Assembly (NCBI RefSeq): GCF_963921235.1
Contig: NC_086108.1
Location: 19,840,001-19,904,000 of the forward strand
Direction: 5' to 3'
Length of the DNA: 64,000 nt
Origin: Mobula hypostoma
Lineage: Eukaryota
Shown here: in pieces, positions 2,303 to 64,000 of the stretch
Numbering within the stretch: the first letter of the stretch is position 1
Layout of the letters: every line of letters begins with the position of its first letter
Position numbers and translations under genes: made by a program
The notes under the pieces: generated by a model
Databases searched by the model: none
Told to the model about the DNA's origin: nothing
The model's input: the letters and a program-made list of their open reading frames with translations, nothing else

Positions 2303-2339
2303 AATCATTGAAATCATTGTTATACAGCATAAAGTCAAG

Positions 2340-6993: not shown

Positions 6994-8542
<1,549 letters not shown>

Positions 8543-33057: not shown

Positions 33058-33139
33058 GGAGACGGTTCTGGTGACAGCAGCAGCTGGTGCAGCAGGACTT
33101 GCTGCTATGGACATTGCATCTCACATCCTGAATGCCAAG
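33058..33139 (+). CDS. CRYZL2: CRYZL2 exon 7 (ETVLVTAAAGAAGLAAMDIASHILNAK)
   Basis: NADPH-binding AxxGxxG Rossmann motif; CCAG| acceptor, AAG|GTTTGA donor. Confidence 0.92.
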
Positions 33140-36570: not shown

Positions 36571-36719
36571 TCCATATTAACTAAACCATCTGATGCTACA
36601 AGGGTAGGAATCTTGTAGTGAGTAGTTTACCTTCTGAATCTATGGTTCAGGAGCATGAGTGAATTCACCTGGATACAGGGCTCAGGAAGCTCAATGCCAT
36701 CCAGGGCAAAGCAGCCCAC

Positions 36720-38505
36720 ATAATTATATGAAGAGCAAGAGGATAAGACGTGAAAGAATAGGACCTATCAAGTGTGACAGTGGGAAAGTATGTATGGAAC
36801 CAGAGGAAATAGCAGAGGCACTTAATGAATACTTTACTTCAGTATTCACTATGGAAAAGGATTTTGGTGATTGTAGTGATGACTTGCAGCAGACTGAAAA
36901 GCTTGAACATGTAAGTATTAGGAAAGAGGATGTGCTGGAGCTTTTGGAAAGCATCAAGTTGAATAAGTCGCCAGGACTGGATGAGTTGTACCCCAGGCTA
37001 CTGTGGGAGGCGAGGGAGGAGATTGCTGAGCCTCTGGCGATGATCTTTGAATCATCAATGCGGACGGGAGAGGTTCCGGAGGATTGGAGGGTTGTGGATG
37101 TTGTTCATTTATTCAAGAAAGGGAATAGAGATAGTCCAGGAAATTATAGACCAGTGAGTCTCAGTGGTTGGTAAGTTGATGGAGAGGACCCTGAGAGGCA
37201 GGATTTATGAACATTTGGAAAGGTATAATATGATTAGGAATAGTCAGCATGGCTTTGTCAAGGGTGGGTTGTGCCTTACGAGCCTGATTGAATTTTTTGA
37301 GGATGTGACTAAACACATTCATGAAGGAAGAGCAGTAGATGTAGTGTATATGGATTTCAGCAAGGCATTTGATAAGGTACCCCATGCAAGGCTTATTGAG
37401 AAAGTAAGGAGGCATGGGATCCAAGGGGACTTTGTTTTGTGGATCCAGAACTGGCTTGCCCACAGAAAGCAAAGGGTGGTGGTAGACGGGTCATATTCTG
37501 AATGGAGGTCGGTCTCCAGTGGAGTGCCTCAGGGATCTGTTCTGGGACCCTAGCTCTTTGTAATCTTTATAAATGACCTAGATGAGGAAGTGGAGGAATG
37601 GGTTAGTAAGTTTGCTGATGATACAAAGGTTGGGGGTGTTGTGGATAGTGTGGAGGGCTGTCAGAGGTTACAGCGGGACATTGATAAGATGCAAAATTGG
37701 GTTGAGAAGTGGCAGATGGAGTTCAACCCAGATAAGTGTGAAGTAGTTCATTTTGGTAGGTCAAATATGATGACAGAAAATGGCATTAATGGTAAGACTT
37801 TTGGCAATATGGAGGATCAGAGGGATCTTGGGGTCCGAGTCCATAGGACGCTCAAAGCAGTTGTACAGGTTGACTCTGTGGTTAAGAAGGCGTACGGTGT
37901 ATTGGCCTTCATCAATCGTGGAATTGAATTTAGGAGCCGAGAGGTAATGTTGCAGCTATATAGGACTCTGGTCAGACCCCACTTGGAGTACTATGCTCAG
38001 TTCTGGTCGCCTCACTACAGGAAGGATGTGGAAGTGTAGAGGAGATTTACAAGGATGTTGCCTGGATTGGGGAGCATGCCTAATGAGAGTGGGTTGAGTG
38101 AACTTGGCCTTTTCTCCTTGGAGCGACGGAGGATGAGCGGTGACCTGATAGAGGTGTATAAGATGATGAGAGGCATTAGTCGTGTGGATAGTCAGAGGCT
38201 TTTTCCCAGGACTGAAATGATTGCCACAGGAGGACACAGGTTTAAGGTGCTGGGGAGTAGGTACAGAGGAGATGTCAGGGGTAAGTTTTTTACTCAGAGA
38301 GTGGTGAGTGCGTGGAATGGGATGCCGGCAATGGTGGTGGAGGTGGATACGATAGGGTCTTTTAAGAGCCTTTTGGATAGGTACATGGAGCTTAGAAAAA
38401 TAGAGGGCTATAGGTAAGCCTAGTAATTTCTAAGGTCGGGACATGTTCGGCACAACTTTGTGGGCCGAAGGGCCTGTATTGTGCTGTAGGTTTTCTATAT
38501 TTCTA
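36720..38505 (+). mobile_element. CR1 LINE RT through 3' end
   Basis: ORFs 36659-38417 with all RT motifs and a TTTCTAT tail. Confidence 0.9.
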
Positions 38506-38878: not shown

Positions 38879-41579
38879 AGGGACCGTAAACCCTCCACCA
38901 CTGGCTCGCCTTGGCTGCATTCTGTATCACCTGCAAATAACACTACTTACTCACCTCTTAAAGCATCTCTACCACCAAGAAGGGCAATGGCATTCTCATG
39001 ACCTTGACTTTATCACAATTCCACCATTCATCCAGGTTACAAGTGTTCAGGAAGATAGCTTATTACCAACCTCCCAAGTGCAGCTGGGGACTGGCCATTA
39101 ACATGAGCCTGGCCACTGATGTCCACATCTCAAAATTAATTAGAAAAAGGGAAAAAAAATCATGACCTGCAACATTAAGTTTGCTCCTCTGTCCACAGAT
39201 ACTGCCTGACCTACTGAGTGTTTCCAGCATTTTCTGTTTCTCTCTCAGATTTCCATTGGCTGCAGTTCTTGATTTTTGATGTTGCCTTTGAGCTTATATT
39301 GGACTTGTAATGGCAGCTCAAAATAAACAGCCTCCTCTTAGTGGGATTGGGAAATGGGGATTGGTGGTCAAACTGCCGACTGTTTCTCCTGAACTCATTT
39401 TATATCAGACATGCGTATGGGGGTAAAAATGCCCAATACAAGTAGATATTAAGTTTAAACTGCTCTGGTTGGGCTGAGAACATATTGCAAAGAGAGGTAT
39501 TTTTGGATTAGGGTTGATCATCTTGGTGATTCCTGCTCAGTGAGTTCCTCATCTTTACATGGTGTCTTATATGATGGCAATAGGGGCTGCAGGCACTGTG
39601 GAGCTGGTGGAGGAAACAGTCATAATTGGCTTGCTGGAGCACTTTGTCTGGAATCATTGTAATATTGGAGAAAGTATTCCCCTCACAACTTAGTTTAACA
39701 GCTTGATGAAGTTCATGTTCATGTTCATTTGCAGATTTGGGTCAGCAGATGGCATTCCTGCCTCAAAAATCAATGCAGTACCTTCAGGCTAAACTTCAGA
39801 ACTTCCCTTCATTGTGCAGGGGGTTTGATTTATGTGTGGGGAGTCCTACAGTGCTGGAGGTGTTGGGCTTTGTCTGGTGTATTATGACGTGGGAAGATGT
39901 TGTAATTCCCACAGATCAGTCTGAGAAGCGCAGGATCTTCTTGTATTTATAAATTCTTCCATCAGCCTACACCATTTCTCCCACTCCTCAGTGGAATTCT
40001 CCAAAGTGTACATCCTCCAAGGGTACAAAATGTCAACCATGCTTTCATGTTTCAAAGTAATCATTTACTTTGAAACTATCCACACTATCTTTGACATGAT
40101 AAGATAGGCTGCAATTTTAGAAATATTTCCATCTAATGACAGCATATAAATGATCTGTTGTGGGAGACACATAAGCCTCTTGCCCCCCCCACTTACCTTT
40201 CTTCATCAAATCAATTTCTTCCTCTTTTCTCTCAACTTTTCTCCTTAATGTGTTCTATGCTCTTCACTTTAATTACCATTTGGTAGTGAGTTCCACTTTC
40301 TCACCAGACTGCATTATTTATTTGGTAAGTGCACATAACTGTCTCCTCACATGCAGACTTCAGTATTGTTCGATCAATTGAAGGTGTTGGGAGGACACTT
40401 GCAATACTGCCTCTATCCAAAACCATAAAATGACTTCACCTGGTTGCCAGTTATAAAAATTGTCAATGACCTATTGTAAAAGCTGTTCTCAATTCCTTTG
40501 TAATGAACATGGAGATAGTGAACAATATGTTGTTTGCTTCCTTGATTTTTACTCCTTGTTCCAAAGGATTTCTCGAGTTACCTCCTGATCAGGTAGCCAG
40601 CATTGTTGAGCGCATCTTGATGGGAAGGAGGCACACGGTGTATTGTGTAGACTTTTTTTGGAATGGAGGATCATGTGTAGCATGGATTTTATTAATCAGC
40701 TTTTAGTTTACAAGACATCAAAAAGTTTTTAAGAGATTGTTGTTATCTCTGAGAAAATCCAGGCAAGTTGAGTCAGTTCAAGATGTAATAAGCAAGGTTA
40801 CATGCAGCTATGTATTGGCCATGAGTTCTATATGAAACCAATGCCAAAAGGTTGGACCATTCCGCATTGCTACCTGGAGACAGGAACTGAGTTTGGGGCT
40901 TCTGGTGACCCTGTTGATCTGAGATTGCTTGAGTGACAAACTGTTTGGAATACTTTTGCTGTAGTCATCTGAATGTGCTCATGAGTAGTCATACATCTGC
41001 TTAATGCCATGTTAGAACAGGGTTTCGCATCAACATCTGTCACTGTGAATGGATTTTGGCTTCTTGTTAAATACTGGCATTGTCGGGGTTACATATACTT
41101 CAACTCAGTTTTGACAGAGCATTCTGTGTTCTGACAAAGAGTCTTCAACTTGAAATGTCAACTCTTGTTTCTCTTCCTACAAATGGGTCTGACTTGCTGA
41201 GTGTTTCCAATATTTTTTTTATCTTAATTTTAGATTTCCAGCTTCTGCAATTTTTTTGATTTCCATATGCGGGGTTAACTGATAGCATGTCATTTATTCC
41301 TTGGTCAACATGGGCACAATGTGGGATTTGCATACAGAACGGTCTGGTTTAATCCAACTATTTGTGTTTCTGTATCTTGAATTAGACAGTCTAGTCACTG
41401 ACCTATGTTGTATATGTTTCTCTGAAACATAATCTTCAGTACATATTATAGTTCTTGGTTACTCTGCAGGCATATTTTTCACATCTTGAAAAGCATTTTC
41501 AAAATGATTGGCATACTAATTCAGCAATCTTCGTAAGCATATCTAGCAGCCACCTTGTCTCCATTGATGAGCACTGACA

Positions 41580-41797
41580 TTCTCTATCTCTATTTCTCCA
41601 TCCGTCCCTCTCCCTGTCTGTCCCCCTCCCTGTCCCTCTGTGTCTCTCTCTCTCTCTCTCTCTCTCTCCCTGTCCCTGTGTGTGTGTGTGTGTGTGTGTC
41701 TCTCTCTCTCTCTGTCTGTCCCTCTGTCTCTCTCTTTCTTCGTCTGTCTGTCTCTGTCTCTGTCTCTATCTCTCTATCTTCTCTCTCTCTTTCTCTG
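41580..41797. repeat. CT/GT microsatellite tract abutting the exon 8 acceptor
   Basis: Seen directly. Confidence 0.9.
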
Positions 41798-41800
41798 TAG

Positions 41801-41982
41801 GTCATTGCTGCGGCAGGAACAGATGAAAAGAGCGAACTGGCATTGCAAAGAGGTGCTGTAGCAGCCATCAATTATACCACACAGAGCCTGAAAGAGGAGG
41901 TGAAAAAACTGACTGGAAATAAAGGAGTGGGTGTGGTTTTTGATGCTGTGGGAGGAGATGTATTCAAGCAAGCTTTCAGCAG
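41801..41982 (+). CDS. CRYZL2: CRYZL2 exon 8 (VIAAAGTDEKSELALQRGAVAAINY...KGVGVVFDAVGGDVFKQAFS)
   Basis: CTGTAG| acceptor after a CT-rich tract, AG|GTATTT donor; GV.VVFDAVGG motif. Confidence 0.93.
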
Positions 41983-42204
41983 GTATTTTCATCATAATGC
42001 ACTTGTCTATGGTATTAACTGCTTAATCACCAAGTTGTGACAGACAGCAGGGTGTGGGTTCAAACTTCATCCCTTCAGTTGTCCATCTCTGTATGGGGAG
42101 TATTCCTGCAAGATGTCAGACTATTTTTTGTCAGTGGTGGGACAGTGTTGGAACCAATGGTGCTGTGTCATGCCTTCAGTTTGACAGTATGGTAGATGTG
42201 TAAC

Positions 42205-44392
42205 CTACCTGGGCCCTCAGAGGTTTCTTCTTCCTCTCACCCCAACCATCCCCTCTCCACTGACACCACCAACCTCCCTCCCCCTCCCCTCTCTGATCCC
42301 ACTTCTCATCTGTGCTGGGCCTTTACCGTCCCCTCCGACCTTCAACTATCTGAGGCAGAACGCTCTGTCCTCAGTAAGGGCCACACCTTTGTCCCCCTTC
42401 GCCCACACCTCAGCGAGTTCCGCGTTCGCCATGATGCTGAACTCTTCTTCCGCCAGCTCCGTCTTCGAGCCTACTTCTTCGGCAAGGACTCTCCCACCCC
42501 CACCGATGACCCCTTCTCCCATCTTCAACCCTCCTCCTCTTCATGGACACCCCGCTCTGGTCTTCTGCCTGCTCTGGATCTCTTTATTGCTAATTGCCGA
42601 TGGGACATCAACCATCTCAACTTCACCGCACCTTGTTCCCATTCCAACCTCACTCTTTCTGAACGTTCTGCTCTCCACTCCCTCCGCACTAATCCTAACC
42701 TTACTATAAAACCCGCTGATAAGAGGGGTGCTGTTGTAGTCTGGCACAGTGACCTCTACCTTGCCGAGGCACAGTGACAACTCGGGGATACCTCCTCTTA
42801 TTTACCGCTTGATCATGACCCCACTAAGGAGCACCAGGCCATTGTCTTCCACACCATCACCGACTTTATCCGCTCAGGGGATCGCCCATCCACTGCTACC
42901 AACCTTATAGTTCCCACACCCCACACTTCCCATCTCTACCTCCTACCCAAGATCCACAAACCTGCCTGTCCTGGCAGACCTATTGTCTCAGCTAGCTCCT
43001 GCCCCACCGAACTCATTTCTGCATACCTCGACACTGTTTTATCCCCCCTTGTTCAATCCCTTCCTACCTATGTTCGTGACACCTCTCACGGTTTGAAACT
43101 TTTCGATGATTTTAAGTTCCCTGGCCCCCACCGCTTTATTTTCACCATGAATGTCCAGTCCCTATATACTTCCATCCACCCCCCGCCCCCATCAGGAAGG
43201 TCTCAAAGCTCTCTGCTTCTTTTTGGATTCCAGACCTAACCAGTTCCCCTCTACCACCACTCTGCTCCGTCTAGCGGAATTAATCCTTACTCTTAATAAT
43301 TTCTCCTTTGGCTCCTCCCACTTCCTCCAAATTAAAGGTGTAGTTATGGGCACCCCTATGGATCCCAGCTATGCCTGCCATTTTGTTGGCTTTGTGGAAC
43401 AATCTATGTTCCAAACCTATTCTGGTATCTGTCCCCCACTTTTCCTTCACTACACGGACGACTGCATTGGCGCTGCTTCCTGCACGCACGCAGAGCTCGT
43501 TGACTTCATTAACTTTGCCTCCAATTTTCACCCTGCCCTTCCTCTTCTCACCCTGTCTCTTGCAAAAATGCCATCCCCTTCTTGCAATTCCTCTGTCTCC
43601 ATCGCATCTGCTCTCAGGATGAGGCTTTTCATTCCAGGACGAAGGATATGTCCTCCTTTTTTAAAGAAAGGGGCTTCCCGTCCTCCTCCTCTAACTCTGC
43701 TCTCAAATGCATCTCCCTCATTTCACACACATCTGCTCTCACTCCTTCCTCCCGCCACCCCACTAGGAATAGGGTTCCCCTTGTCCACCCCACCAGCCTC
43801 CGGGTCCAACATATAATTCTCTGTACCTTCCGCCACCTCCAACGGGATCCCACCACTAAGCACATCTTTCCCTCCCCCCGTCTGCTTTCCGCAGGGATCA
43901 CTCCCTATGTGACTCCCTTGTCCATTCGTCCCCCCATCCCTCCTCACCGATCTCCCTCTTACTTAGCCTTGTAAGCGGAACAGGTGCTACACATTCAGGG
44001 CCCCAGACAGCCCTTCCAGGTGAGGCGACTCTTCACCTGTGAGTTGGCTGGGGTGATATATTGCATCCGGTGCTCCCGATGCGGCCTTCTATATATTGGC
44101 GAGACCCAACGCAGACTGGGAGATCATTTCGCTGAACACCTACGCTTTGTCCACCAGAGAAAGTGGGATCTCCCAGTGGCCACACATTTTAAATCCACGT
44201 CCCATTCCCATTCTGATATGTCTATCCACGGCCTCCTCTAAAGTTGAAGCCACACTCAGGTTGGAGGAACAACACCTTGTATTCCGTCTGGGTAGCCTCC
44301 AAACTGATGGCATGAACATTGACTTCTCAAACTTCTGCTAATGTCCCACCTCCCCCTCGTACCCCATCCGTTTTACATATATATATACACAC

Positions 44393-45379: not shown

Positions 45380-46110
45380 CAGGATCAGAATCAGGTTTAT
45401 TATCACTGACGTGCTGTGAAGTCTGGTTTTGCAGGTGTAGTAAGGTGCAAGATGGGAAAATTAATTTGAGGCACAAAATTTAGTAATGCTGAGAGAAATT
45501 ACAAAGTAGTATTCATAGACTTTTCAAAAATCAGATGGTGGAGAGAGGAAGCTGTTGCTTAAATACTGAGTGTGGGTCGTCAGGATCCTGTACCTCGTTC
45601 CTGACGGTAGTAACATGAAGAGAGTATGTCTCAGATGGTGAGCGTCCTTAAAGATGAATGTCACCGTCTTAAAGACACTGGCCATTGAAGATGTCCTTGA
45701 TGGTGGGGAGGGTCATACCTGTGATGGAGCTGGCTGAGTCGACCACTTTCTGCAGCCCCTTTCCATTCCAGGCAGGATTGCAACCAGTCAGAATGCTCTC
45801 CACCATACACCAATAGAAATTTGCAAGACTTTGGTGATGTACCAAATCTCCTAATGAAGTACAGCTGCTGGGTTGCCTTCTATGTGATTGCATCAATGTG
45901 TTTGGCCCAAAATAGATGCTGAGATGTTGATATCCCAGAAGTTGCTCACCATTTCCATGGCTAACCCCTCAATGAGGACTGGTGTGTATTCACCTGACTT
46001 CCTTTCCTGAAATTCATAATCAATGCCTTGATCATGTTGACATTGATTGTGAGATGGTTGCTGTGATATCACTTAGCCAGCTGATCTGTCTTACTCCTGT
46101 ATGCCCCTTA
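45380..46110 (-). mobile_element. Rex-Babar-type LINE fragment
   Basis: ORF 45669-45896 (ESILTGC..AWNG...LQKVVDSASSITG). Confidence 0.65.
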
Positions 46111-46369
46111 CCATTACACACCTTGCTACTACAAATCTTCTGAATTGGAATACACTTCAGCTAAAGATGATCAAATCAGTTGCCATTTAAAAATACTCAT
46201 GTTCATATTGACTGTTGCATTTCAGCAGTGATCACATTTCATAGGTACTTAATTTCTCTGATTTTTTTAAAGCTGTCCTGCAGTCATAATACAAAAATGT
46301 TCATCTTCTTTCATGCCTTGATGTGTTCAACTGGCATTTAACTGAAGGTTTGCTTTCCATTTCTGGCAG

Positions 46370-46598
46370 CTTGTCCTGGGAAGGCAGAATTGTGGTGGTT
46401 GGTTTTGCTGGGGGAAATGTATCAACCATACCAGCTAATCAACTGCTGCTAAAGAATGTGACAGCCATGGGTGTTTTCTGGGGAAAATACAAAGATCAGC
46501 ATTTCCCAGTCTTCTCCAGATCCATTACATCTGCACTTCAATTCTGCAAAGAGGGAAGAATCAGTCCTTATAATGGTTCAGTCTTTAAAATGCAACAG
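46370..46598 (+). CDS. CRYZL2: CRYZL2 exon 9 (SLSWEGRIVVVGFAGG...LLLKNVTAMGVFWG...FKMQQ)
   Basis: GGCAG| acceptor, CAG|GTAAAT donor; the typical QORL2 segment is visible in ORF 46323-46673. Confidence 0.93.
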
Positions 46599-49561
46599 GT
46601 AAATACTCTTTCTACTCGTTCATATTGTATTTTCAGAATCTGTAAGTCAGAAACAAAAGTGAAAAAACTTTAAGTACATGTCACATCTATCAATCCAATG
46701 AAGAGAAAAAGGCAGATTGATATATTGTGTATCATTCTGTGATAGAATGGAAAATATGCAAATTTATTTGAGGACTATAAACCATATTGTGAAGATGGGG
46801 TGGTGAGAAGGAAGAACAAAAGATCCCTGCTGTTTCAGTCAGAAGTTAATGAACTCTCCTAAGTCCCTTAAGTATTCGCTCAGTTACTGGGTGCACACTA
46901 GCACACTCCATTTCATTCCTGATTTTGGGTTACAGCAAATCTTGGTGACAATGAACCCAACAAAATACCTATCAAAATATGCAAAAATATGATTCTTTTA
47001 ACATTTTTTCATAAACTGATTTTTAATCATACTTTGTGAGTTTTGTATAAGTGTATTATCAAATCATTCAACTATGCATTTCTTTCTTCAGTTTGTTGAA
47101 AGGAGTTATTTTTATTCTATTATCTGTCACATGATTTTATATGCATTTCTCAAATTTTCTGTGTGTGTTCATGTTAAGGGAGGGTGCCTGTGGTAGCTCA
47201 TATGACATTGTTACAGACTGTAAGATCAGAAGAAAGCCTTTGCTTCATTCCCTGGTCCCTGTTGAGTTAGCTGACTCTGTGATATGGTGGGCAACCTATT
47301 CAGCCTAACATTTCACTTACAGGAAACTTCAGCTGTGTTTGACATATAAATATGGTTGACACAGTAGATCAAGTGGTGCTGCTGACTTAAAGCTCAGGTA
47401 ACTGGGATTTGATTATGACCTTTGATACAGTCTGTGTTGAGTTAGCATATTTTCCCAATGGCTTTGTGGATTTCCCCTTGTGTGATCTGGTCTCTCCCGA
47501 AGATATGCTGGTTACTATAAATTATTCCTTCGTATGGGCCAGTGGTGGGTGGTGGTGGTGAGGAAATCAGGGTGGAGTTGGTGGGTATGTGAGAGAGATT
47601 GTTACAAGGAAACAGGTGGTAGAATGGAATTGATGGGATTGTTTTGAGTGCCAGCATGGACAAGTGTTGAATGATATTCTACATAACAATATACAGAAAA
47701 TATCTGTGGGTTTTTGACAATGACGTGGTTCAATTCAGTTATGCTGTTTCTCATGGTAAGTTAGCCATCTGTCGCCTAGTTGTGCTCCTGAAAATTTGAT
47801 CAGCTGATTGAGATTCGGGAGAGGTCAGTGGAGCTGTTAAGGAGTAAGGTATTTAGAAGGGGGTCTGAGGGGAACGCTTTTCACCTAGAGAGTGGTGTAA
47901 ACCTGGAACGCACTGCCAGAGAGAGTATTGGAAGCAAAGTTGCTCACAGCATTTAACAACTGTTTAGATTAGCACTAGAATCACTTTGATATAGAAGACT
48001 ATACGTCATGTGCTGGAAAATGGGATTAATACAGGTGGATGCCTATTGATTGTGGCAGGCCGAATGGCCTGTGGCCATGCTCTGCGACTCTGTGTTAATG
48101 CTTTTCAGAGAGATTAAATCACCTAACAGTAATCATTCAGTGATGATGAGCAGATTTGCTCCATTGACTAAATTGACTAAATTTTTGCTGGATTATCCGT
48201 ACAGAGAGTGAAGGAGAATTAGCAGGTATGGAGGGAAGGTGAAGGATAAGAGAGTTTAAAGAGAATTCAAACAATATATTTTATCTTCAGAAATGTAGAT
48301 TAACAGAACCTTGATTTTGAAATGCTTTTAATTTGGTTTAGTTTATTACATTACTTGAAAAGATGGTTTTATTATTTAACTGGAAATTAAAGATCTTAAA
48401 TAGAAACAGAAAATGCTGAAGACACTCAGTAGGTCAGGCAGGATCTATGAATAAAGAAACAGTTAATATTTCAGGTGGGAAAGTTTGACACAGGGTCTTC
48501 AACCTGAAATGTTAACTTTCTCTGTTCACAGCTGATCAACTGACGATTTACAGCATTCACAATTATTATGTCGGCTCTGAATAAAGGTGTATTACAAGCT
48601 AAAATCAGAGATTAAGCAATTAGCATCGGTGACAGAAATCCTATATTGATCCCCATAAACTGGTTCTATGGATTAACTATTCTAAGTATTTATCATATTA
48701 GAATTTTAGCTGATGTCAGATTGTGATTTTCCATATAAGGAGTGGAAACAGTGAGGGAAAAGGACAAGGGAATTGGAGAGAACAGCCTGCACCAGATGGG
48801 AAATGACTCACAAAGTAGCAGGTTGAAACTGCAGGCAAATCAGTGATGTGCACAAGGATGTGGCAATCACAGCCAAAATCTGTCCTTTTGCAGTTCTATT
48901 TTAAGATACTTCAATTACTATGTTACTCTTGTTAGAGTTAGTGGAAAGGATTAATTTTAGAATAGTTTTGTATTTGCATATGAATTACACACAGCATTGT
49001 TATTTCAACTGTTCCAGTTCCCCTTGTTTAAAAACAGATTTCCTTTTGTTAATGAAATTTATGGGAACACATCTCAGCTCCTAGTTTACACTAGTTCTTC
49101 TAACTCCATTGTTAAAATATTCAAATAGCATGAGTCACTGATATCTTTTCCCACTTTATGCTATTGAAATTTAACATGTATGGCTTAATCTCCCTAAATG
49201 TGGATACTGATTTATTTTGCCTGGTGTGTCTCTACCAAGATATCCTAGTGATACAAAAGATTTTGACTGAATGCAGATCTAACAGGTTTAATCTTTGTTT
49301 ATTTGACTTGAGGAAGAGGTAGAAGAGAAAGTTGCCAAGTAAATGTATGGAACTTTATGCTTAGCATGTAGTGAATAGAAAATCAACCTCCCCAACTACC
49401 CTTGTTCAGTATCTAGAACTTCAACAGAAAGTGAGTGGGGATATGATACTTTGTAATGAGGCTAAAACTACTTCCAATATGGAATGCTGGATGATGCTGG
49501 AGAGAATCTCTGGAGTGTTTCTTCTGCTCTGCACAATTTATATCTTTTATTTCTTTTGAAG

Positions 49562-51074
49562 TAATAGACTTTTAATTCTTTTCAAACAGCGTACTTTCCA
49601 TGACAGTTTTCTGAAGACACAATGCTCAGACTCCCATGAGAGAAGGACCATTTTTGCACTGAGCTCGGGTCATGGCAAGTGTGGGGTAGCTGTTATCCGA
49701 GTGAGTGGACCTGCTAGTCGGGATGCACTCAGCTCTCTGACTGGCCAGAGACCTCTACCCCCAGCCAGGGCTGCTGTCATCAGGCCGTTGCTGGACCCCA
49801 GATCAGGGGAGCGCCTGGACGTGGCCCTGGTATTATGGTTTCCAGAACCGCGAAGTTTTACTGGAGAGGATTGCTGTGAGTTTCACGTCCATGGTGGATC
49901 AGCAGTAGTTAGTGGAGTTCTTCAATCTCTGGGAAGCTTACCTGGGCTGCACCCAGCTGAAGCAGGGGAATTCACTAAACGTGCTTTTCAGAATGGGAAA
50001 CTGGACTTGACAGAGGTGGAGGGTTTAGGAGATCTCATTCATGCAGAGACAGAAGCCCAAAGAAGGCAGGCATTGAGGCAGATGGCTGGCGGCCTGGGAC
50101 AGCTCTTTCATGCATGGAGTGAGAGGCTAACTCGATGCCTGGCTCACTCAGAAGCTTACATTGATTTCAGCGAAGATGACAACATTGAGGATGGAATACT
50201 CGATACCGTTGACAGTGAAGTGCGAGCATTGCAGAGAGAAATGGACAATCACCTGTGTGACAGTCGCCGAGGCGAGAGACTAAGGGAGGGAGTTCATGTT
50301 GTGATTGTTGGGGTGACAAATGCTGGGAAAAGTAGCCTTTTGAATGCAATCTGTCAGAAGCCAACTGCCATAGTCTCACCTGTAGCCGGAACAACACGAG
50401 ATGTAGTGGAGACAGCTCTGAACATTGGGGGGTACCCTGTACTTTTGAGTGACACAGCAGGACTCCGCGAGACATCTGACATTGTAGAGCAAGAGGGCAT
50501 GAGACGAGCGCGGCAGAGGCTAAAGCAGGCAGATGTTGTGGTTGTGGTAGTGGATACCACAGAGCTCCCAACAAACATGACTGATGCTGTTCATTTTCTC
50601 CAAGATTATCTGAACAAAGTAGTTTTGCATAAATCTAATGAGGAGTCGGATATATCCAGCCCAAGACTGGAAGACTGGATTGTAGTTTGTAATAAAATGG
50701 ATCTGGTTCAGATGGAAGATTTCAAAAAGCTGCCCAAAATTCATAAAGAACATGGACTGCCTCAGGTGTGCATGCTGTCATGTAAAACCGGCTGTGGTTT
50801 TGATGACTTCTTAGATCTCCTTAAGGAAAGAGTTGAAAAGATGTGTGGGAACCCCTTGGTTGGAAATCCTAGTCTGACACAGGCCCGTCATCGACTGCAC
50901 CTCCAGAACTGCACCCAATATCTAAAGCACTATCACCAGAATCGAGACTTGGACATTGTCCTGGCCACGGAGTATCTGAGAATGGCACTGAGACAACTGG
51001 GAAAGATCACTGGAAAAATTGGAGTTGAAGAAATCCTAGAAATTGTGTTCAGGGATTTCTGTATTGGTAAATAA
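49562..51074 (+). CDS. GTPBP3: tRNA modification GTPase GTPBP3 (MnmE/TrmE/MSS1), single large coding exon nested in CRYZL2 intron 9; N-terminus must come from an upstream exon
   Basis: Uninterrupted frame from 49560 to stop 51072-51074. Motifs: [35 protein letters not shown]1 [10 protein letters not shown]2 GTTRD, G3 DTAG, G4 NKMD, C-terminal FCIGK. In-frame stop at 49557-49559 and no in-frame ATG before the conserved domain. Confidence 0.93.
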
Positions 51075-51075
51075 A
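51070..51075 (+). terminator. Candidate polyadenylation signal AATAAA overlapping the GTPBP3 stop codon
   Basis: ...GGT AAA TAA AAC: AATAAA spans 51070-51075. Confidence 0.35.
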
Positions 51076-51694
51076 ACATCTAAAGGTGGAGTTAATTTTT
51101 AACTCTTCATATCATTGGGACCTTAGATCAGGTGTTTTCTAGACCTTTAGATCACCTGTGATATCGTAGGATTCAAGTGATTGCTGGATTTCCTTAAACT
51201 CCTATCAATTCACTTATTATGTTGTGGTATGGAGACATTAAGCCATGTGTTATGCAAGTAAAATTGTTAGAAAAGTTCTTATTACTGATGATCTGGACCA
51301 TTAATTTATTTAATGTTTAAAGATTTTGCTTGCTAGTAACTACCTGCTTTAATCAATGAACAGCAGATAAATAGACCAAGTGTAGATAGCAGACACAGAA
51401 GCCACCCTATGCTGCTAGTAGTGGAGGAGGTTAATGGTGGTTTGGGTGCCAATCAAATGTTGTTTCTCTGGCTGCAATCATACAAGCCAGTTGAATTGCC
51501 CACATAGGCAGAGAGTATCAGAGAACAATGTGAATGGTCAAAAATGGTGTGATATAAAAATAATTAATATTATAATCTGGTAGTTAATCAAAAATGACTA
51601 AATGATAGCTTGATCATAATTGCAGTGGTTTCTTAAATTATGGGCAAAGTATAATGGAAATGAGTGTTACTTTATTGGATTTGTAATTTTCCAG

Positions 51695-51763
51695 GTAAAT
51701 GAAGCTTTCCAACACATATTGCAGCGCAAGTCCATTGGGAAGGTCATCCTAACCATGAAATGA
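51695..51763 (+). CDS. CRYZL2: CRYZL2 exon 10, terminal (VNEAFQHILQRKSIGKVILTMK*)
   Basis: TTTTCCAG| acceptor and MDR C-terminal GKVIL motif. The spliced CDS is 1116 nt (371 aa) with no frameshift. Confidence 0.92.
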   Translation, partial: VNEAFQHILQRKSIGKVILTMK

Positions 51764-51863
51764 ACTGAAGAAAAATAGCCAGAGAAAAGCTGGACTATAA
51801 CACAGTATACTAGCCCGCATTTTGAAATAGTAAAAATAATTGTATATGCTGTAACTCATTTGC

Positions 51864-51869
51864 ATTAAA
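51864..51869 (+). terminator. Candidate CRYZL2 polyadenylation signal ATTAAA
   Basis: About 100 nt downstream of the CRYZL2 stop codon, in AT-rich sequence. Confidence 0.35.
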
Positions 51870-52975
51870 AAGCTAAATTTTATTCAAAATTCTTGATAAA
51901 AGAACAGAAAAGTACAGTTTTTTTAACCAGCCTTTTTAAGGTATATACACAGAAAAAGTGATTCTAATTGGTCATAGATCAACAATATATGGTGGTTATT
52001 TCCAATGTAATTTGCAATGGAATAGTGCGGAACATACTGCATTGATGGTGCATCAAACCCAAACAGCCATGCCCTCCCTGACTAACTGCAGTGTGTGCTA
52101 TTTCCAATGTGACTTGTAATGGAAAGGTGTGGAACCCACTATCAGAATCAAAATCAGGTTTATTATCAGGGACATGTGTTGTGAGATTGGTTGTTTTGCG
52201 GCAGCAGTACAGTGTAATACATAAAAAAAAACACTATAAGGTAAATAAGGAATATAAAAAATAAATAAGTATTGCACAAAGAACAAAACAGTGAGGTGAC
52301 ATTGATGGACCATGCAGAAATCTGCTGTGGAGGGGAAGAATCTGTTCCCAAAATGTTAAATGTGTTTCTTTAAGCTCCTATAGCTCCAATACCTCCTCCC
52401 CAAGAAATATCCTGGGTGGTGGGGGGCCTTAATGATGGATGCTGTTTATTTGAGGCATTGCATTTTAAAGATTTCCTCGATGGTGGGGAGGCTAATGGCC
52501 ATGATGGAGCTGGCTGAGTTTATAACCCTCTGCAGATTTTTCCCAATCCTGTGCATTGGCACTTCCATACCAGCCAGTGATCCAACCATTTAGAATGCTC
52601 TGTAGAAATTTCCATTTCACAGAAGCTGTCTGAAAAATGTAATGCTTTTAATTGTGGTAAAAAGCTGACCTTCAGAATGTTCTTTATCATGTTTCTATAT
52701 TTTTAGAATAGCATGAAGATATAGTTACTATTCTATAGATTTGCTAAGTATGCCCACAGGAAAATGAATCTCAGGGTTGTATATGGATTCTATATATTTC
52801 AATAATAAAATTTACTTAGAAGATACGTAAATGTAGTAATATAGAACTGCCATCAATTGCAGCAGTGACACAAGTCAAAAGGTGAAGTGATATAAATTGA
52901 CTAAAAAAAGTTCTAAATTTTAATTACTCTATCTTCATTGTTGATTGTAGTGTTTGGCCAAGTGTGATGATTTTG

Positions 52976-53007
52976 TTAGGTCTTGGAGGATTTTGAGGGC
53001 TGAGGAG
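52976..53007 (-). CDS. ANKRD45: Probable ANKRD45 terminal coding exon ((S)PQPSKSSKT*)
   Basis: Strong pyrimidine tract TTTTTATTTTTCTCTTTCAATGAAG| on the - strand; phase 1 matches the donor at 60425 and gives a short Ser/Lys tail and TAA. Confidence 0.5.
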
Positions 53008-54373
53008 CTTCATTGAAAGAGAAAAATAAAAATTAGTTTTTTTCTTAAGAGGACTTTCTTAAAATGTTGATTTTTACAAATTATGTTTACAGACATTCAG
53101 TACATGTAAAAAGTACACAAAGTATGTGTTCTACACAAAGTTAATCATTGGAGATTTTTCTGAGGTTACATCCAGTAACCAGTATTTGCATCAATTTATT
53201 TCAGGATAGTGTCTTTGCAGTTTAATTACAATCTAAAATGGAATGAAGGAAATCTAAACATATGTAACTACTTGCACAGGTTTTTTGATTTGAACATCAT
53301 CATTTGGCTGATTTAGATTTGGTTCAATTCTGAGAACCAAGCCATCAAAGCACATTTTTTTGTAGCTTTACTGATATAAAATGGTGTACCATAAGTGAAA
53401 ACTGGAATGTTTAAATCAACGTTTTCAGAGATAGTTTAGCATAAGGTTAAAAAAAGAATTTAAATTAACCTTTTTATTAAGAAAATTTAACATCAGTTTC
53501 AGAATTGATAAATTCCTTTTAGCTGAACTGTATTAGAAGTATAAAGTACACGAGGAAATTTTAAAAATTAGGAATGAAATTAATAGTTTGGCTACACAAG
53601 AAATAAGAAAAAATTAATGTTTCTGAAACAGGCACTATGAAAATACTGGCGTGGAAATGAAAAAAAAAAGCAGAAAATACAATTCATAGAATAAAGGATC
53701 CAAGAACAAAAGTGATTTTTAAAAAAAAGCAAAGTGAAATTCAAGAAGCTTTTGAAATGTTTTACAAAACTCTATATTCCAAAGTTCCAGGGGGAAGCAT
53801 AACCCAAATTGGCACCTTCCTGAATTCTTTAGAGTTACCCACTTTAAGCAAAGAACAAAATAGAACAATAACTGCTGACATAACTGAAACTGAACTAAAA
53901 ACTGCAATTAGTAGGCTTAAATTAAGCAAGTCACCAGGAATCAGATGGATATACGGCAGAGTGGTATAAAGAGTTTAGAAGTAAGTTAATTCCTATTTTA
54001 CTCCCCACACTGAACTGGGCCCTAAGAAAGGCACAAATGCCACCCAGCTGGAAGGAGACGATAATCTCAGCTCTACTGAAAGGAGGCAAGGATAAAACGG
54101 AGTGTGGGTCATTTAGACCACTATCTGTTCTTAATGTGGATTATAGAATATTTACTTCCATCCTGGCCAAATGATTAGAAGAGTTCCTACCCACACTGAT
54201 GCATAATGATCAGACAGGTTTTATACAACAACGCCAAACACGAGACAATATACGAAGGACACCACATTTTGGATCATATTTTTAAAAAATGAAATTGAAA
54301 CAATAGTGATAAGTTTGGACGCTGAAAAGGCATTTGATTCTATTAATTGGAATTTTCTTTACAGAGTTTTACA

Positions 54374-56038
54374 GGAAGGTGGAGAACAAGTTCTGGTTCA
54401 GCATCGCAGGCACAGCCATCCCAACCATCACAGAAAAGCCAGTCAAGAGCTTAGGCAAAGTTTTTGACAGCTCCTTAAGGGACACAACATCCATTCAGGC
54501 AACCTGCACTGAGTCGGATGGTTGGCTGAAATCTGTGGATGAGTCTGGCCTACCTGGGAAGTTTAAAGCCTGGGTGTATCAGCATGGCATTCTTCCCAGA
54601 ATCCTGTGGCCCCTCCTCATCTATGCAGTTCCGATCTCGATAGTCGAAACCTTAGAGAGGAGGGTTAGCAACCACCTCGGGAGATAGCTGGGGCTGCCAA
54701 AGAGCCTGAGCAGCATCGCACTCTATGGACACCACAACAAACTGCAACTGCCCTTCAAATCCTTGGAGGAAGAATTCAAGGTAACAAGAGCCAGAGAAGT
54801 GCTACAGTATAGGGACTCAAGTGACCCGAAGGTGGCTAGAGCAGGGATCCAAGTAAGTACTGGCAGGAAGTGGAGGGCAGAGGAAGCTGTTCAGGAGGCA
54901 GAGGCGAGGCTGCGTCACAGGAGGCTGGTGGGAGTGGTCACACGAGGCCGAGCTGGGCTAGGATCCTTTCCAACTCCCCAAATGGACACCAGAGGGAAGG
55001 AAAGGCGTTGTCTAGTTCTGGAGGAGGTGAGAGCAGTAGTGGAGGACACGAGAGCCTGCAAGGCGGTGGGAATGAAGCAACAGGGAGCTTGGACAAGGTG
55101 GGAGAATGCGGTTGAGAGGAAAGTGACCTGGGCTGACCTTTGGAAAGCCGAACCACACCGCATCCAATTTCTCATCTAGACAGTGTACGATGTGCTTCCA
55201 AGCCCATCAAACCTGCACACATGGGGCAAGGCAGAGTCAGCTGCTTGCCCACTGTGCTCCAAGCGAGGAACCCTGGAGCACATCCTCAGCGGCTGTGCAA
55301 GGGCACTTGGTGAGGGATGGTACAGGTGGAGGCATGATCAGGTCCTGAAGACCATCGCTGAAGCCGTCAGCGCAGGATTTGAGTGGGCGAAGCGGTCCCG
55401 ACCCTCCAAGCAGACCATTGCCTTTGTCAGAGCTGGGGAGCAGCCAATACCTGCCAAAAGAACATCTGCAGGCATTCTGACCTCTGCAAGGGACTGGCAG
55501 CTGTTGGTGGACCTCGAAGGGCAGGTGAAGTTCCCCAACCATATTGCAGCCACCACCCTGTGACCATTGCCCTTGTATCTGAGTCGACTAAGCAAGTGGT
55601 GCTGCTGGAGCTGACAGTCCCATGGGAAGATAGCTTGGAAGAGGCCTTTGAAAAGAAGCTCTCCAAGTACGCAGGTCAGCAACTGTCAGCAGGCCGGATG
55701 GAGAGCGAGGTGTCTCCCAGTGGAGGTTGGTTGTAGGGGATTCATAGCCCGTTCTTTAGTTAGAGTCTTCAGCATTTTGGGCATCGAGGGAGAGGGGAAG
55801 AGGAGAGCCATCCGCAGTACCGCCGATGCGGCAGAGAGGGCCTCAAGATGGCTGTGGCTCAAAGGAGGGGAGCCATGGAGTCATAAGTAGCTAGCCATCT
55901 GGACACAAGCTGGGGTCTGATCAGCCCCGGTTGGGTCACCTGGAGGAGGGTGTATGACGTTGAAAGACCCGAAACACCCGATGATTCCAGGAACATCACT
56001 GAATATGTGTCCAGAAGCATCAATAGATGTACACAACA
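54374..56038 (+). mobile_element. Hero-like non-LTR retrotransposon (restriction-like endonuclease) 3' part, inserted in L1
   Basis: LPGKFKAWVYQHGILPRILWPL, CPLCSKRGTLEHILSGC, RHDQVL, LLELTVPWE, PVEVGCRGF. The L1 sequence GTTTTACA|TAGATTT resumes across it. Confidence 0.8.
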
Positions 56039-56129
56039 TAGATTTGGTCTTAATGACACAATTATTAAAACTATACAGGCACTATATGACAATTCTACTG
56101 CCAGGATTAAAATCAATGGATATTTATCT

Positions 56130-56331
56130 GAGCAACACACATCAAAGTTGCTGGTGAACGCAGCTGGCCAGGCAGCATCTCTAACTAACTCTTCCTTCAG
56201 TTAGTCCTGACGAAGGGTCTCGGCCTGAAACGTCGACTGTACCCCTAGAGCTGCTGCCTGGCCTGCTGCGTTCACCAGAAACTTGGATGGGTGTTGCTTG
56301 AATTTCCAGCATCTGCAGAACTCCTGTTGTT
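56130..56331 (+). mobile_element. 202-nt Penelope-derived fold-back insertion containing a hammerhead motif
   Basis: 13-bp TSD TGGATATTTATCT (56117-56129, 56332-56344); 56130-56183 is an inverted copy of about 56246-56300. Confidence 0.82.
56203..56238 (+). ncRNA. Minimal hammerhead ribozyme motif
   Basis: AGTC-CTGACGA-AGGGTCTCGGCCT-GAAA-CG-TC-GACT. Confidence 0.68.
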
Positions 56332-59300
56332 TGGATATTTATCTAATAGTTTTACCCTAGAAAGGGGCACGAGACAGGGTTGTGCATGGTCACTGCTACT
56401 CTTCGCATTATATCTGGAACCATTAGCTCAATACACCAGACAAAATGAAGATATCAGGGGAATTGCTATTAAAGGGACAGAGCATAAATTGGCCTGTTAC
56501 GCGGATGATATTTTGATCTATGTAGGGCAACCAACATACTCTACCTAAATTGATGCAATCCTTTGAAAAATATGGCCTATTATCAGGATACAAGATCAAC
56601 ATAGATAAAACCCAACTACTTTCATATAACTATAGCCCACCAAGAGAAATTGAAAGGAGATATCATTGGGCATGGCAAACAGAGTCCGTCAAATATTTGG
56701 GCATCATTATGCCAAAAGATTTGGCAAAATTATCAGAATGCAAATAACAGCCTGTATATAAAAAAAATAAGGAAGATATAACAAGATGGAACCTAATTCC
56801 TTTTCTTGGTCTCAGTTCAAGGATTGAATCTATTAAAATGAATATACTGCCCAGACTATTATATCGCTTTCAGACCCTACCAATAGAGATTAACCAAAAT
56901 CAATTCAACGAATGGAACAAGATGCTATCAAGATATATGTGGCAAGGTAAAAGGCCTAGGGTTTGTCTCAAAATTTTGCAATTAGCCAAGGAAAAGGGGG
57001 GAATGGGGCCTACCTTCTCTTAGAGATTATTATTTTTCAGCACAGTTGAGAGCCATGATATGCTGGTGTAACCCATCATATGGCGCTCAATGGAAAAACA
57101 TTGAGGAGAGGATGCTTTCCATCCCCCTATAGGCAATTTTGGCTGATAACAACCTACAAAGTTACATAAATAATGTTGACAACCCGTGGGTGAAATGGAC
57201 TCTTAAAATATGGAAAACTATTATAAAAGAATATAAACTAGAGAGAGACATTGCAATTCTTAAATGGTGTGGCATATAACTCGGATTTTACGCCGAATAA
57301 ACTGGATGCTAGATTTAAGGACTGGACAGATAAAGGAATAACAGTTATTTGCAATATAATGGAAGAAGGAACACTATTCAGTTTTGAAGCTCGAAGAGAA
57401 ACACTTATTAGAAAAACAAGACTTTTACCGGTATTTACAGATGCGACAGTATGTAAATAGGACGGTAAAAAATGTAACCAAGGCAAGTACATGTCTGATA
57501 GATCTACTTAGAAAAGCATATAATTCAGACAACGGTAGAATTTGAAGCGTTTATAAGGGTTTGTCAAATCTTAAAACACATTCGACTTCATACATTAAAA
57601 CAAAATGGGAGAAGGAAGGAGGGATAATAATATCTGAGGAAGACTGGACAATGATATGGAGGTATCAATGGAAGTGTACCACTTCACAGAAATAGAGGGA
57701 GTTTGGGTGGAAAACCTTGATAAGATATTTTATTACACCCTCTCGGAAATCCCATTATAATAGTAACTGCCCTGCTTGCTGGAGAAATTGTGGAAATCAA
57801 AATGCAAACCATTATCATATTTTCTGGGAATGCCCCGTTATCAAAGACAATTGGAGTGGGATACATAATGCCCTACAAGACGTCTTTAAATGTGAAATAC
57901 CCTTAGAGAGTAAGACTATATATTTTGGGTATACACCTCAAGAATGGTTGAAAAGAGATAAATATTTAATGAATGTACTGCTGGTGGCTGGTAAAAAGAC
58001 CCTTACCAGGAAATGGTCATCTCAGAAGAGCCCAACTTTAAATGTATGGATGGAAATTACAATGGACATATTTTTACAAAATGGAGAAGATAACAGCATC
58101 TGTTAATCATAAGCTGGAACAATTGTATTCATACTGGAAAAAATGGTTTAACTACATAACACCTCATAGGCCTGATTTTATTCTCACAAGTCAATGAATA
58201 TGTTGTAAAAAAAAATCACTCCCCACTCTGTACATAGTTTTCTTCTTTTGATTGTTCTTTCTTTCCTCTCCTTTCTGTAAGTGTATCCCTCATAAATATT
58301 ATGTGGAGATCTGTGACAAATATGATTATATATGTACAGTATCTGAAATATATCTTATGGAAATGTTTGATGATGAAATTCAATAAAAAATAAATTACTC
58401 ATGGTAGGAAACCATATTTTAAAATACATCTGGCATTTTAATCAAAATTAATTGAAGGATCCAACTGAATTTGCCTCTTTCAATAACTTCTTAAAGATGT
58501 CCCTCCATTTTCTAATTTGTAAATATATTTTGAGAGTTGCCTCTCTGAAATGCAGAAGAGTAGTTACTGTATAGAAAACAAATAAAACTGACTGAATGAC
58601 TGAGGGGTCTCAGGCTGAAATGTTGACTGCTTATTACTCTGCGGTGATGCTGCCTATCCTGTTGAGTTCCTCTAGTATTTTGTGTGGCTGGATCTGAATT
58701 TTCAGTGTGTTTATGAAACTGGTTTTATTCACTGCAGAATACCCATTCACCTCTACTGGTCAACCATGACCACTCCCCTCCCTTGAATACAATCAACAAA
58801 TCAGAGCACAAATATCTCAAAATGAGTTTGACAAGAATGACATTCTCTTAAGTATCTGGTTATCCCCATAATCATTTACTAATGTGTACCATAATCATAA
58901 TTTCTTCCTCAAATAATAGCATCCCAAACAATAACTGGTCATTTATCTCATTGCTATTTCTACAGCCTTGATGAGAATGTAGGCTTTATATTTGCTTACA
59001 TATCATTTATGTGATTAGATTCTAACTATTATTAGGAAAGCTTCTTCCTGATAACTCTTGCTTGACCTATCAGACGTGTTTCAGCTAAGGATAACATACC
59101 AAAAGTGAACCTACTTAGCCAAAAAAAATGAACACACGGTTATTATAGGAAAAGTAAATCAAAATTTTGAGAATGAAGCACTAAATTACACTAGGTCAAG
59201 TTTTTAAAAATGTTTTAATAAAATGTAACAAGAAATAGAAATGGAATAGAATATGGAAATAGAGCAGTAAAGTAGATTGTAGAGTGATGAGAAGGAATAT

Positions 59301-62681: not shown

Positions 62682-64000
62682 AACCATAGAACCATAGAAA
62701 CTACAGCACAGAAACAGGCCTTTTGGCCCTTCTTGGCTGTGCCGAACCATTTTCTGCCTAGTCCCACTGACCTGTACACGGACCATATCCCTCCATACAC
62801 CTCCCATCCATGTATCTGTCTAATTTATTCTTAAATGTTAAAAAAGAACCCACATTTACCATCTCGTCTGGCAGCTCATTTCATACTCCCACCACTCTCT
62901 GTGTGAAGAAGCCCCCCTAATGTTCCCTTTAAATTTTTCCCCCCTCACCCTTAACCCATGTCCTCTGGTTTTTTTTCTCTCCTTGCCTCAGTGGAAAAAG
63001 CCTGCTTGCATTCACTCTATCTATACCCGTCATAATTTTATATACCTCTATCAAATCTCCCCTCATTCTTCTACACTCCAGGGAATAAAGTCCTAACCTA
63101 TTCAATCTTTCTCTGTAACTGAGTTTCTCAAGTCCCGGCAACAACCTTGTAAACCTTCTCTGTACCTTTTCAACCTTATTTATATCCTTCCTGTAATTTG
63201 GTGACCAAAACTGAACACAATACTCCAGATTTGGCCTCACCAATGCCTTATACAACCTCATCATAACATTCCAGCTCTTATACTCAATACTTCGATTAAT
63301 AAAGGCCAATGTACCAAAAGCTCTCTTTACGACCCTATCTACCTGTGACGCCACTTTTAGGGAATTTTGTATCTGTATTCCCAGATCCCTCTGTTCCACT
63401 GCACTCCTCAATGCCTTACCATTAACCCTGTATGTTCTACCTTGGTTTGTCCTTCCAACGTGCAATACCTCACACTTGTCTGCATTAAACTCCATCTGCC
63501 ATTTTTCAGCCCATTTTTCCAGCTGGTCCAAAGCCCTCTGCAGGCTCTGAAAACCTTCCTCGCTGTCTACTACACCTCCAATCTTTGTATCATCAGCAAA
63601 TTTGCTGATCCAATTTACCAAATTATCATCCAGATCATTGATATAGATGACAAATAACAATGGACCCAGCACTGATCCCTGTGGCACACCACTAGTCACA
63701 GGCCTCCACTAGGAGAAGCAATTCTCTACTACCACTCTTTGGCTTCTTCCATTGAGCCAATGTCTGATCCAATTTACCACCTCTCCATGTATACCTAGTG
63801 ACTGAATTTTCCTAACTAACCTCCCATGGGGGACCTTGTCAAAGGCCTTACTGAAGTCCATGCAGACAATATCCACTGCCTTCCCTTCATCCACTTTCCT
63901 GGTAACCTCCTCAAAAAACTCCAATAGATTGGTCAAACATGACCTGCCACGCACAAAGCCATGTTGACTCTCCCTAATAAGTCCCTGTCTATCCAAATGC
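62682..64000 (-). mobile_element. Young CR1 LINE (RT through 3' end) inserted in L1; runs off the window
   Basis: ORFs 62929-63699 and 63709-63996 are largely intact; (TTCTATGG) tail at about 62682. Confidence 0.9.

Follow-up and report, generated by a model that had tools for sequence, protein, structure and literature searches.

The window considered here, that is, the whole 64,000-nucleotide stretch of Mobula hypostoma DNA analysed (contig NC_086108.1 of RefSeq assembly GCF_963921235.1, positions 19,840,001 to 19,904,000; GC 42.5%, 0 N), contains the gene CRYZL2 and, inside it, an uninterrupted reading frame for GTPBP3, a mitochondrial GTPase needed for the taurine-type wobble-uridine modification of mitochondrial tRNAs. 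The GTPBP3 frame has no start codon of its own, and its expression would have to draw on sequences elsewhere. The account regarded as probable, if only just, is that the CRYZL2 transcript has two alternative 3' ends, one of which encodes GTPBP3 and arises through splicing of CRYZL2 exon 9 to an acceptor whose exon begins at 49590. Coordinates are those of the window.

The MnmE/GTPBP3 frame extends from stop to stop over 49560-51071 of the plus strand (504 codons) and terminates with TAA at 51072-51074. On its 5' side it is shut by a TGA at 49557-49559, and no ATG occurs in frame before codon 175 (50082), a position deep within the protein. Pfam matches well over the cut-offs give it the domain set of the MnmE/GTPBP3 family, namely TrmE_N (PF10396, E 2.2e-35, residues 30-147), MMR_HSR1 (PF01926, E 2.4e-24, residues 246-352) and MnmE_helical (PF12631, E 5.8e-47, residues 150-501). 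MnmE proteins are recognised by the nucleotide-binding motifs G1 to G4 and by a C-terminal CxGK; the frame carries GVTNAGKS at 251, TTRD at 278, DTAG at 298 and NKMD at 378, and ends in CIGK. An earlier note on this DNA, made from the sequence alone, had described an intact frame of about 504 codons, closed by TGA, with no ATG before the domain start and with all G motifs and the FCIGK terminus, and each of these elements is borne out. Of the usual features of eukaryotic members of the family, those absent from the window GTPBP3 are a start codon of its own and an N-terminal presequence.

In other vertebrates GTPBP3 is known as a multi-exon gene. Coelacanth GTPBP3 aligns to the window in one unbroken piece (residues 23-506, the residues before 23 remaining unmatched), so the copy is intron-free, as the earlier note had proposed, and lacks approximately the first 22 codons. 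The coding exon drawn in the NCBI model (49590-51074, plus strand) comprises 19 residues of the old presequence, a remnant that can still be aligned to coelacanth, followed by the complete MnmE-type protein and the TAA. Absence of introns would count as a retrogene trait; no A-rich tract that might be a poly(A) remnant was found after the stop in 51075-51700, and target-site duplications were not searched for. Erosion of such hallmarks would be expected if the insertion predates the split between chimaeras and elasmobranchs. An AATAAA overlaps the stop codon (51070-51075, plus strand), which the earlier note overlooked and which may be the poly(A) signal of GTPBP3 itself; between it and CRYZL2 exon 10 there is no further AATAAA or ATTAAA. 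GTPBP3 transcripts may end there or may have a 3' untranslated region (UTR) in common with CRYZL2.

The nested copy is the only GTPBP3 found in the genome. When the assembly (3.48 Gb, 200 contigs, possibly incomplete) was searched with the window open reading frame (ORF) and with coelacanth GTPBP3, a single locus was obtained (E 0 and 2.9e-217), the next-best matches having E values of 4 and 7; a multi-exon parent, the persistence of which the earlier note had left to be checked, is thus not left in the sequence searched. Run X4, from the closely related organism B, yielded a contig with at least 12 differences from the window ORF; among those listed 9 are silent and 3 replacing. The latter (M385V, G399E and K422R) also separate the NCBI models P0001 and P0251. 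Over 347 silent and 1135 replacing sites the listed differences give a dN/dS of about 0.10, with a silent count that is perhaps slightly low. This value is far from 1, and GTPBP3 is, to judge from these substitutions, under purifying selection. Identity amounts to 73-84% with the other chondrichthyan genera listed and to 67% with coelacanth.

The exons of the host gene were located by tblastn with the best database match followed by a search for GT/AG boundaries, which yielded a single solution, entirely on the plus strand. The coding part of exon 1 (3391-3455) supplies the ATG and an Arg-rich presequence, and its donor (CAG/gttagc) lies two bases into a codon (phase 2). It is followed by exon 2 (5719-5875, donor phase 0), exon 3 (6113-6209, phase 1), exon 4 (24885-24943, phase 0), exon 5 (28135-28200, phase 0), exon 6 (31055-31164, phase 2), exon 7 (33058-33139, phase 0), exon 8 (41801-41982, phase 2), which encodes ADH_zinc_N, and exon 9 (46370-46598), whose phase-0 donor CAG/gtaaat is common to both alternative 3' ends. 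The coding part of exon 10 (51695-51763) contributes the last 22 residues, VNEAFQHILQRKSIGKVILTMK, and the stop, after which comes the 3' UTR, covered by contigs that extend to about 53130-53255. The last CRYZL2 intron is therefore 46599-51694, and GTPBP3 lies within it on the same strand, flanked by exons 9 and 10, which is where the earlier note had placed it.

Assignment of the host as CRYZL2, the quinone oxidoreductase-like 2 protein of the medium-chain reductase family, is based on its ADH domains and on orthology. Exons 8 and 9 match PF00107, the precomputed domains of P0001 include PF08240, PF00107 and PF13602, and the window protein is 83-87% identical to named CRYZL2 proteins of rays. 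Its first 30 residues contain 7 K+R and 1 D+E, and in each of the 10 species compared CRYZL2 begins with a presequence-like stretch (5-9 K+R vs 1-3 D+E over the same length). Around exon 1 there is a CpG island (3200-3800; the 400-base windows from 3200 and 3400 show CpG observed/expected of about 1.0 and GC of 0.53-0.56), likely to be a shared promoter of CRYZL2 and GTPBP3. No CpG island is present 5' of GTPBP3 in the intron, where windows starting from 46600 to 49400 have observed/expected values of 0-0.4.

Three AGs occur in the 3' splice-site region of GTPBP3 (49540-49589, plus strand), which has pyrimidine tracts and includes the TGA at 49557-49559; they would give exon starts at 49562, 49568 and 49590. 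The third one, aaacag/CGT, is in phase 0 and escaped the earlier note. It is compatible with the phase-0 donors of exons 2, 4, 5, 7 and 9, and the translation of the GT-AG chain in which exons 1-9 are followed by 49590-51074 is identical at every residue to the NCBI model P0251 of Mobula hypostoma (843 amino acids). A host donor and a nested acceptor are also in frame when exon 1 is joined to 49562 or 49568. When exon 9 is the donor, 49562 leads to an immediate stop (349 amino acids) and 49568 to a stop after 360 amino acids, 11 codons on; from this donor only 49590 is productive.

The same junction recurs across cartilaginous fishes. The comparison included 47 sequences, of which 39 are fusion models from 16 species spanning rays, skates, sharks and the chimaera Callorhinchus (one of them, Chiloscyllium GCC30425.1, is not an NCBI RefSeq XP_ entry), seven are stand-alone chondrichthyan models or ORFs and one is coelacanth. 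The nearest relatives retrieved in the protein search are 664-857 amino acids long and combine ADH_N or ADH_zinc_N with MnmE domains. In all 39 fusions the end of exon 9, ...K[ML]QQ, precedes the linker and the equivalent of the 49590 acceptor is used; the linker follows directly in 37 of them, while in isoforms P0275 and P0277 of Scyliorhinus canicula the linker is set off from the exon-9 end by an insert of 15 residues, VLEKDRHIPYHRGRQ. This insert could be a cassette exon or the product of an upstream acceptor in the catshark.

The DNA just 5' of 49590 is conserved in a different manner. In the colinear skate ORF P0256 the peptides MLDD...SSAL, F.VIDF and FKQRTF are in a single frame, whereas their window homologues are in frames 2, 1 and 0, respectively; likewise, FEVIE.. 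is in frame with GTPBP3 in Narcine, whereas FEVIDF of the window, immediately 5' of 49590, is out of frame (frame 1). Peptides in shifting frames point to indels of lengths other than multiples of three that separate the lineages just 5' of 49590, as far as this can be read from the peptides. On the 3' side the sole length difference is one of six whole codons, in frame, in Pristiophorus. The pattern would place the GTPBP3 coding boundary at or near 49590 and suggests that the segment 49562-49589, with its pyrimidine tract, behaves as intron and not as coding sequence. Since frame-shifting indels fall within this segment, the acceptors at 49562 and 49568 are not the conserved solution; in Mobula, Hypanus and Pristiophorus, where the frame is that of the window, their use would still be formally conceivable.

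Database records of the host itself are uneven. Canonical CRYZL2 models (about 350-384 amino acids) are available for the four species with stand-alone GTPBP3 models (Narcine, Pristiophorus, Pristis and Hypanus) and for Stegostoma and Callorhinchus (UniProt entries), while for the two Mobula species and Hemitrygon the searched protein collection contained none. Species annotated with the fusion seem to lack a record of the canonical isoform, in contrast to the contigs described below, in which exon 9 is joined to exon 10 in every run. The alternative first coding exon of the NCBI isoform P0247 (857 amino acids) was located at 4106-4213 (plus strand, 100% tblastn match). Diverged copies of it are found at 24485-24569, 10088-10126, 56204-56266, 39201-39230 and 48413-48451, and the exon looks like an exonised repeat.

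Several other origins for the start of Mobula GTPBP3 were examined and discarded. A homologue of the 5' exon of the Hypanus stand-alone model occurs at 47725-47823 (plus strand, tblastn E 5e-7, donor AG/gtcagt in phase 2), but its ATG is replaced by GTG in the window, and the reading is further broken by a frame shift and a stop. A homologue of the Pristis 5' exon is found at 48739-48834 (plus strand, tblastn E 2.5e-11) with an ATG at 48796 and a GC donor (CAG/gcaaat, phase 0), and its splicing to 49590 would give 507 amino acids in the window; organism B, in which GTPBP3 is intact, lacks one base at 48801, which puts this ATG out of frame. Colinear translation is blocked, as the in-frame ATGs at 49479, 49491 and 49494 are all 5' of the TGA at 49557. 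Finally, the sole in-frame CTG before the domain, identified by eye, would leave about 12 residues and no presequence to a non-AUG start. With an own start, intronic 5' exons and a colinear frame all eliminated, and with a CpG island at exon 1 and none in the intron, dependence on host exons for the ATG and presequence of GTPBP3 is the reading that remains, and it would hold by elimination. The idea of the earlier note that the host supplies start and targeting survives in this part; its choice of exon 1 alone as donor finds no support.

Contigs from four of 21 sequencing runs (X1, X3 and X5 from organism A, X4 from organism B) were aligned over 45900-53500. These are assembled contigs from which rare variants have been dropped, and the runs are taken to be RNA because the contigs join 46598 to 51695 and exons stand out from introns. 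The joint 46598-51695, i.e., exon 9 to exon 10, is present in 4/4 runs. None of the joints listed leads into 49562, 49568 or 49590 or starts from 47823 or 48834; as contigs drop rare variants, this lack of a GTPBP3 junction supports no conclusion in either direction. The same applies to the bin 48694-48947, where the want of cover in X1 and X3 has no evidential weight, and contig depth, being a poor measure, cannot rank the two 3' ends. A search for short protein fragments that span a junction gave 288 matches, and the best 120 included none near enough to the query to be chondrichthyan, the top one being 76% identical.

Some further features of these contigs deserve mention. In the three runs of organism A a contig (depth 76-335) has 21 letters matching exon 9 (46482-46502) and 21 matching the intron (49464-49484, 80 bases 5' of the TGA), with unrelated AT-rich flanks and ends that are not splice-like; X4 contains a short-match joint from 50757 to 52186 at depth 1024. 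Both joints are probably alignment artefacts of abundant unrelated contigs. The CRYZL2 3' UTR region (51996-53011) reaches depths of 1300-3600 in the bins 52504-53011, far over the coding exons, which suggests a repeated element or another abundant transcript. In a contig of X1 and X5, 82 intron bases at 48414-48497 are replaced by 13 other letters, probably a within-species indel polymorphism.

In the reading favoured here, the ray's only GTPBP3 would be an ancient intron-free copy that lacks the start codon and most of the presequence (about 22 codons). The CpG-island promoter at CRYZL2 exon 1 would drive both products. The exon-9 donor (46598, phase 0) would usually be spliced to exon 10 (51695), giving ordinary CRYZL2, and less often to aaacag/CGT (49590, phase 0), giving a fusion mRNA; alternative choice of 3' splice site for one donor is the simplest mechanism, and 46598-49590 would be the productive junction in Mobula. 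The resulting precursor of 843 amino acids would consist of the CRYZL2 presequence, CRYZL2 up to residue 349, the 19-residue remnant of the GTPBP3 presequence and complete GTPBP3. Its import would be directed by the CRYZL2 presequence, and it may work as a fusion or be cut in the linker. An AlphaFold2 model of the 843-residue protein (65-sequence alignment; mean predicted local distance difference test (pLDDT) 64.3, predicted template modelling score 0.39) is too weak to place the two halves; pLDDT is below 50 at residues 1-44 and at the junction and linker (342-366), the latter being consistent with a flexible junction and no more. A more far-reaching proposal, offered tentatively and held to be rather doubtful as a whole, is that cartilaginous fishes have GTPBP3 only as a composite precursor imported by the CRYZL2 presequence, that processing within it, at what is left of the former GTPBP3 presequence, frees GTPBP3, and that this has been kept since before the divergence of chimaeras and sharks, which would make it a vertebrate counterpart of grass SDH2-RPS14 and yeast Arg5,6.

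A number of observations weigh against the exon-9 fusion. NCBI has stand-alone GTPBP3 models beside separate CRYZL2 genes in Narcine, Pristiophorus, Pristis and Hypanus, and the Hypanus model takes the 49562-type acceptor, its donor being an intronic 5' exon whose Mobula homologue is without an ATG; the four stand-alone N-termini are mutually unrelated, and those of Hypanus, Pristis and Narcine, like the colinear skate ORF, are not presequence-like. The fusion models are automatic NCBI predictions. In favour of the fusion, on the other hand, if the NCBI program Gnomon gives several isoforms only for transcript-supported chains, the several isoforms of each species would imply that the junction has RNA support. 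The pyrimidine tract is richer at 49562 (14/17) than at the 49590 site (12/17). Colinear contigs (49303-51295 in X1 and 48102-51721 in X4) run unbroken across all three acceptors, which indicates unspliced RNA through them and as far as exon 10. The fusion also loses the final 22 residues of CRYZL2, which in the medium-chain reductase fold complete the catalytic domain, and places about 350 residues ahead of the N-terminal dimerisation domain of GTPBP3; one half or both might be impaired.

Other explanations have to be set beside this one. The earlier note had joined exon 1 (3455, phase 2) to 49562 or 49568 by a 46-kb splice that skips exons 2-9. Both junctions are indeed in frame as far as FCIGK (525 and 523 amino acids, respectively), the stronger pyrimidine tract precedes 49562, exon 1 is presequence-like, the product would have the usual size of GTPBP3 (most of the bony-vertebrate proteins listed have about 480-530 amino acids) and the Hypanus model uses an equivalent acceptor, though with another 5' exon. 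Nevertheless, exon 1 is joined directly to GTPBP3 in none of the 46 chondrichthyan models and ORFs, eight exons with good GT-AG sites would have to be skipped, the two acceptors give an immediate or early stop with the neighbouring donor of exon 9, and the segment 49562-49589, coding under this arrangement, is out of frame in skate and Narcine and so does not reflect a conserved mechanism; the direct exon-1 splice is accordingly rated quite improbable. Shorter chimeras, in which exon 2, 4, 5 or 7 is spliced to 49590 (568, 620, 642 and 706 amino acids), are held to be just as improbable. All four junctions are in frame and phase-0 skipping is annotated in this gene (CRYZL2 X3 of Hypanus joins exon 7 to exon 10, and Mobula isoforms lack exons 5-7), but no fusion model (0/39) dispenses with exon 9, the end of which stands before the linker in every case.

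A promoter of its own within the CRYZL2 intron, with transcripts starting near 47.7, at 48.1-48.8 or at about 49.3 kb, spliced or colinear, and an unrecognised translation start, is an unlikely source of GTPBP3, although less so than the two foregoing arrangements. Consistent with it, the colinear contigs begin at 49303 (X1) and 48102 (X4) and pass through the ORF, homologues of the Pristis and Hypanus 5' exons are present in the intron, one of them with a 507-residue product through ATG 48796, and an AATAAA lies at the stop codon. Against this stand the one-base deletion that shifts the 48.7-kb frame in organism B, the lost ATG and the stop of the 47.7-kb exon, the closure of the colinear 5' frame by TGA 49557, the lack of a CpG island in the intron and the unrelated stand-alone N-termini, of which 3/4, together with the skate ORF, do not resemble presequences. 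The opposite view, in which the retrocopy has died or is dying and annotation alone created the fusion models, could appeal to the missing start codon and to low contig depth over the ORF, although such depth is of little value as a measure. The copy is the only one and its differences are predominantly silent (9/12 of those listed), which effectively excludes a dead retrocopy; the 504 intact codons with all their motifs and the identities to the chondrichthyan genera and coelacanth given above argue in the same direction, and this view is considered barely credible.

The rest of the window is rich in sequences that resemble mobile elements. Many long ORFs with the look of LINE-type reverse transcriptase or endonuclease, as judged by eye, are found at 1-786 (minus strand), 10251-12531 (minus), 36659-38414 (plus), 42196-44238 (plus), 53661-58103 (plus) and 62932-63999 (minus), and remnants of Tc1/mariner-type transposases, also recognised by eye, at 7443-8175 (plus) and 13387-14324 (minus). 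A (TC)n microsatellite of about 77 units (41643-41796) ends five bases 5' of the exon 8 acceptor (41801).

If the exon-9 fusion is real, a whole vertebrate class would depend for GTPBP3 wholly on an unrelated gene for a mitochondrial enzyme, which would lend it promoter, start codon and presequence, and the locus would be an old animal case of a nested gene that survives by alternative splicing with its host, a pattern documented in grasses. There is a practical side as well: depending on the species, annotation of the locus shows either a single GTPBP3 fusion or two genes, GTPBP3 and CRYZL2, and orthology tables for cartilaginous fishes may be wrong here. Literature searches yielded no description of the GTPBP3-CRYZL2 arrangement, and it was visible only in automatic NCBI annotation. 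There its counterparts, in 16 cartilaginous fishes, are fusion models under the name "tRNA modification GTPase GTPBP3, mitochondrial isoform X...", automatic predictions that have the same locus architecture and junction. With ordinary vertebrate GTPBP3 and bacterial MnmE the Mobula protein shares TrmE_N, the G domain, the helical domain and the CxGK end; bony-vertebrate GTPBP3 differs in being stand-alone, mostly of about 480-530 amino acids, with its own N-terminal Met and no ADH domains.

Among known systems, composite precursors cut by the mitochondrial processing peptidase, such as Arg5,6 and Atp25 (PMC8734313), are similar to the proposed fusion in that a single precursor, with a single presequence at its N-terminus, contains two mitochondrial proteins. 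On the Mobula side the likeness extends to the junction, which is the relic of a presequence. The yeast cases are gene fusions and not products of alternative splicing; in Mobula internal cleavage would be hypothetical, and the linker is only weakly basic (4 K+R vs 3 D+E in 22 residues). TRIM5-CypA (TRIMCyp) of owl monkeys and macaques (PMC4378998) offers another parallel, as a retrotransposed cDNA, inserted within or beside a host gene, is spliced to host exons and replaces the C-terminal part of the host in frame. The parental CypA was kept and a new function arose, while in the ray the parent is gone and the fusion is apparently the sole route to an old housekeeping function.

The closest counterpart is the sdh2-rps14 locus of grasses (rice, maize and wheat), in which, according to PMC1543663 (citing Kubo et al., 1999, PNAS; Figueroa et al., 1999, Plant J), rps14 is located in an sdh2 intron, alternative splicing gives rise to a chimeric mRNA, RPS14 makes use of the targeting peptide of SDH2 and the fusion precursor is processed. 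At both loci a nuclear gene whose product is mitochondrial harbours, in one of its introns, an intron-free gene for a second mitochondrial protein, and the nested gene is devoid of its own targeting signal. In the grasses alternative splicing gives host or chimeric mRNA and the host peptide serves both products, and the same is proposed for the ray. The window GTPBP3 is nested in this manner, in an intron, on the same strand as its host and without a start of its own. The differences are that rps14 is of mitochondrial-genome origin, while the ray GTPBP3 seems to have been copied from a nuclear gene; that the rps14 chimera uses the first host exon only, whereas nine host exons (349 residues) are apparently kept here; that processing is reported for RPS14, whereas in Mobula it would be hypothetical; and that the host in the present case is a vertebrate gene and the arrangement seemingly much older.

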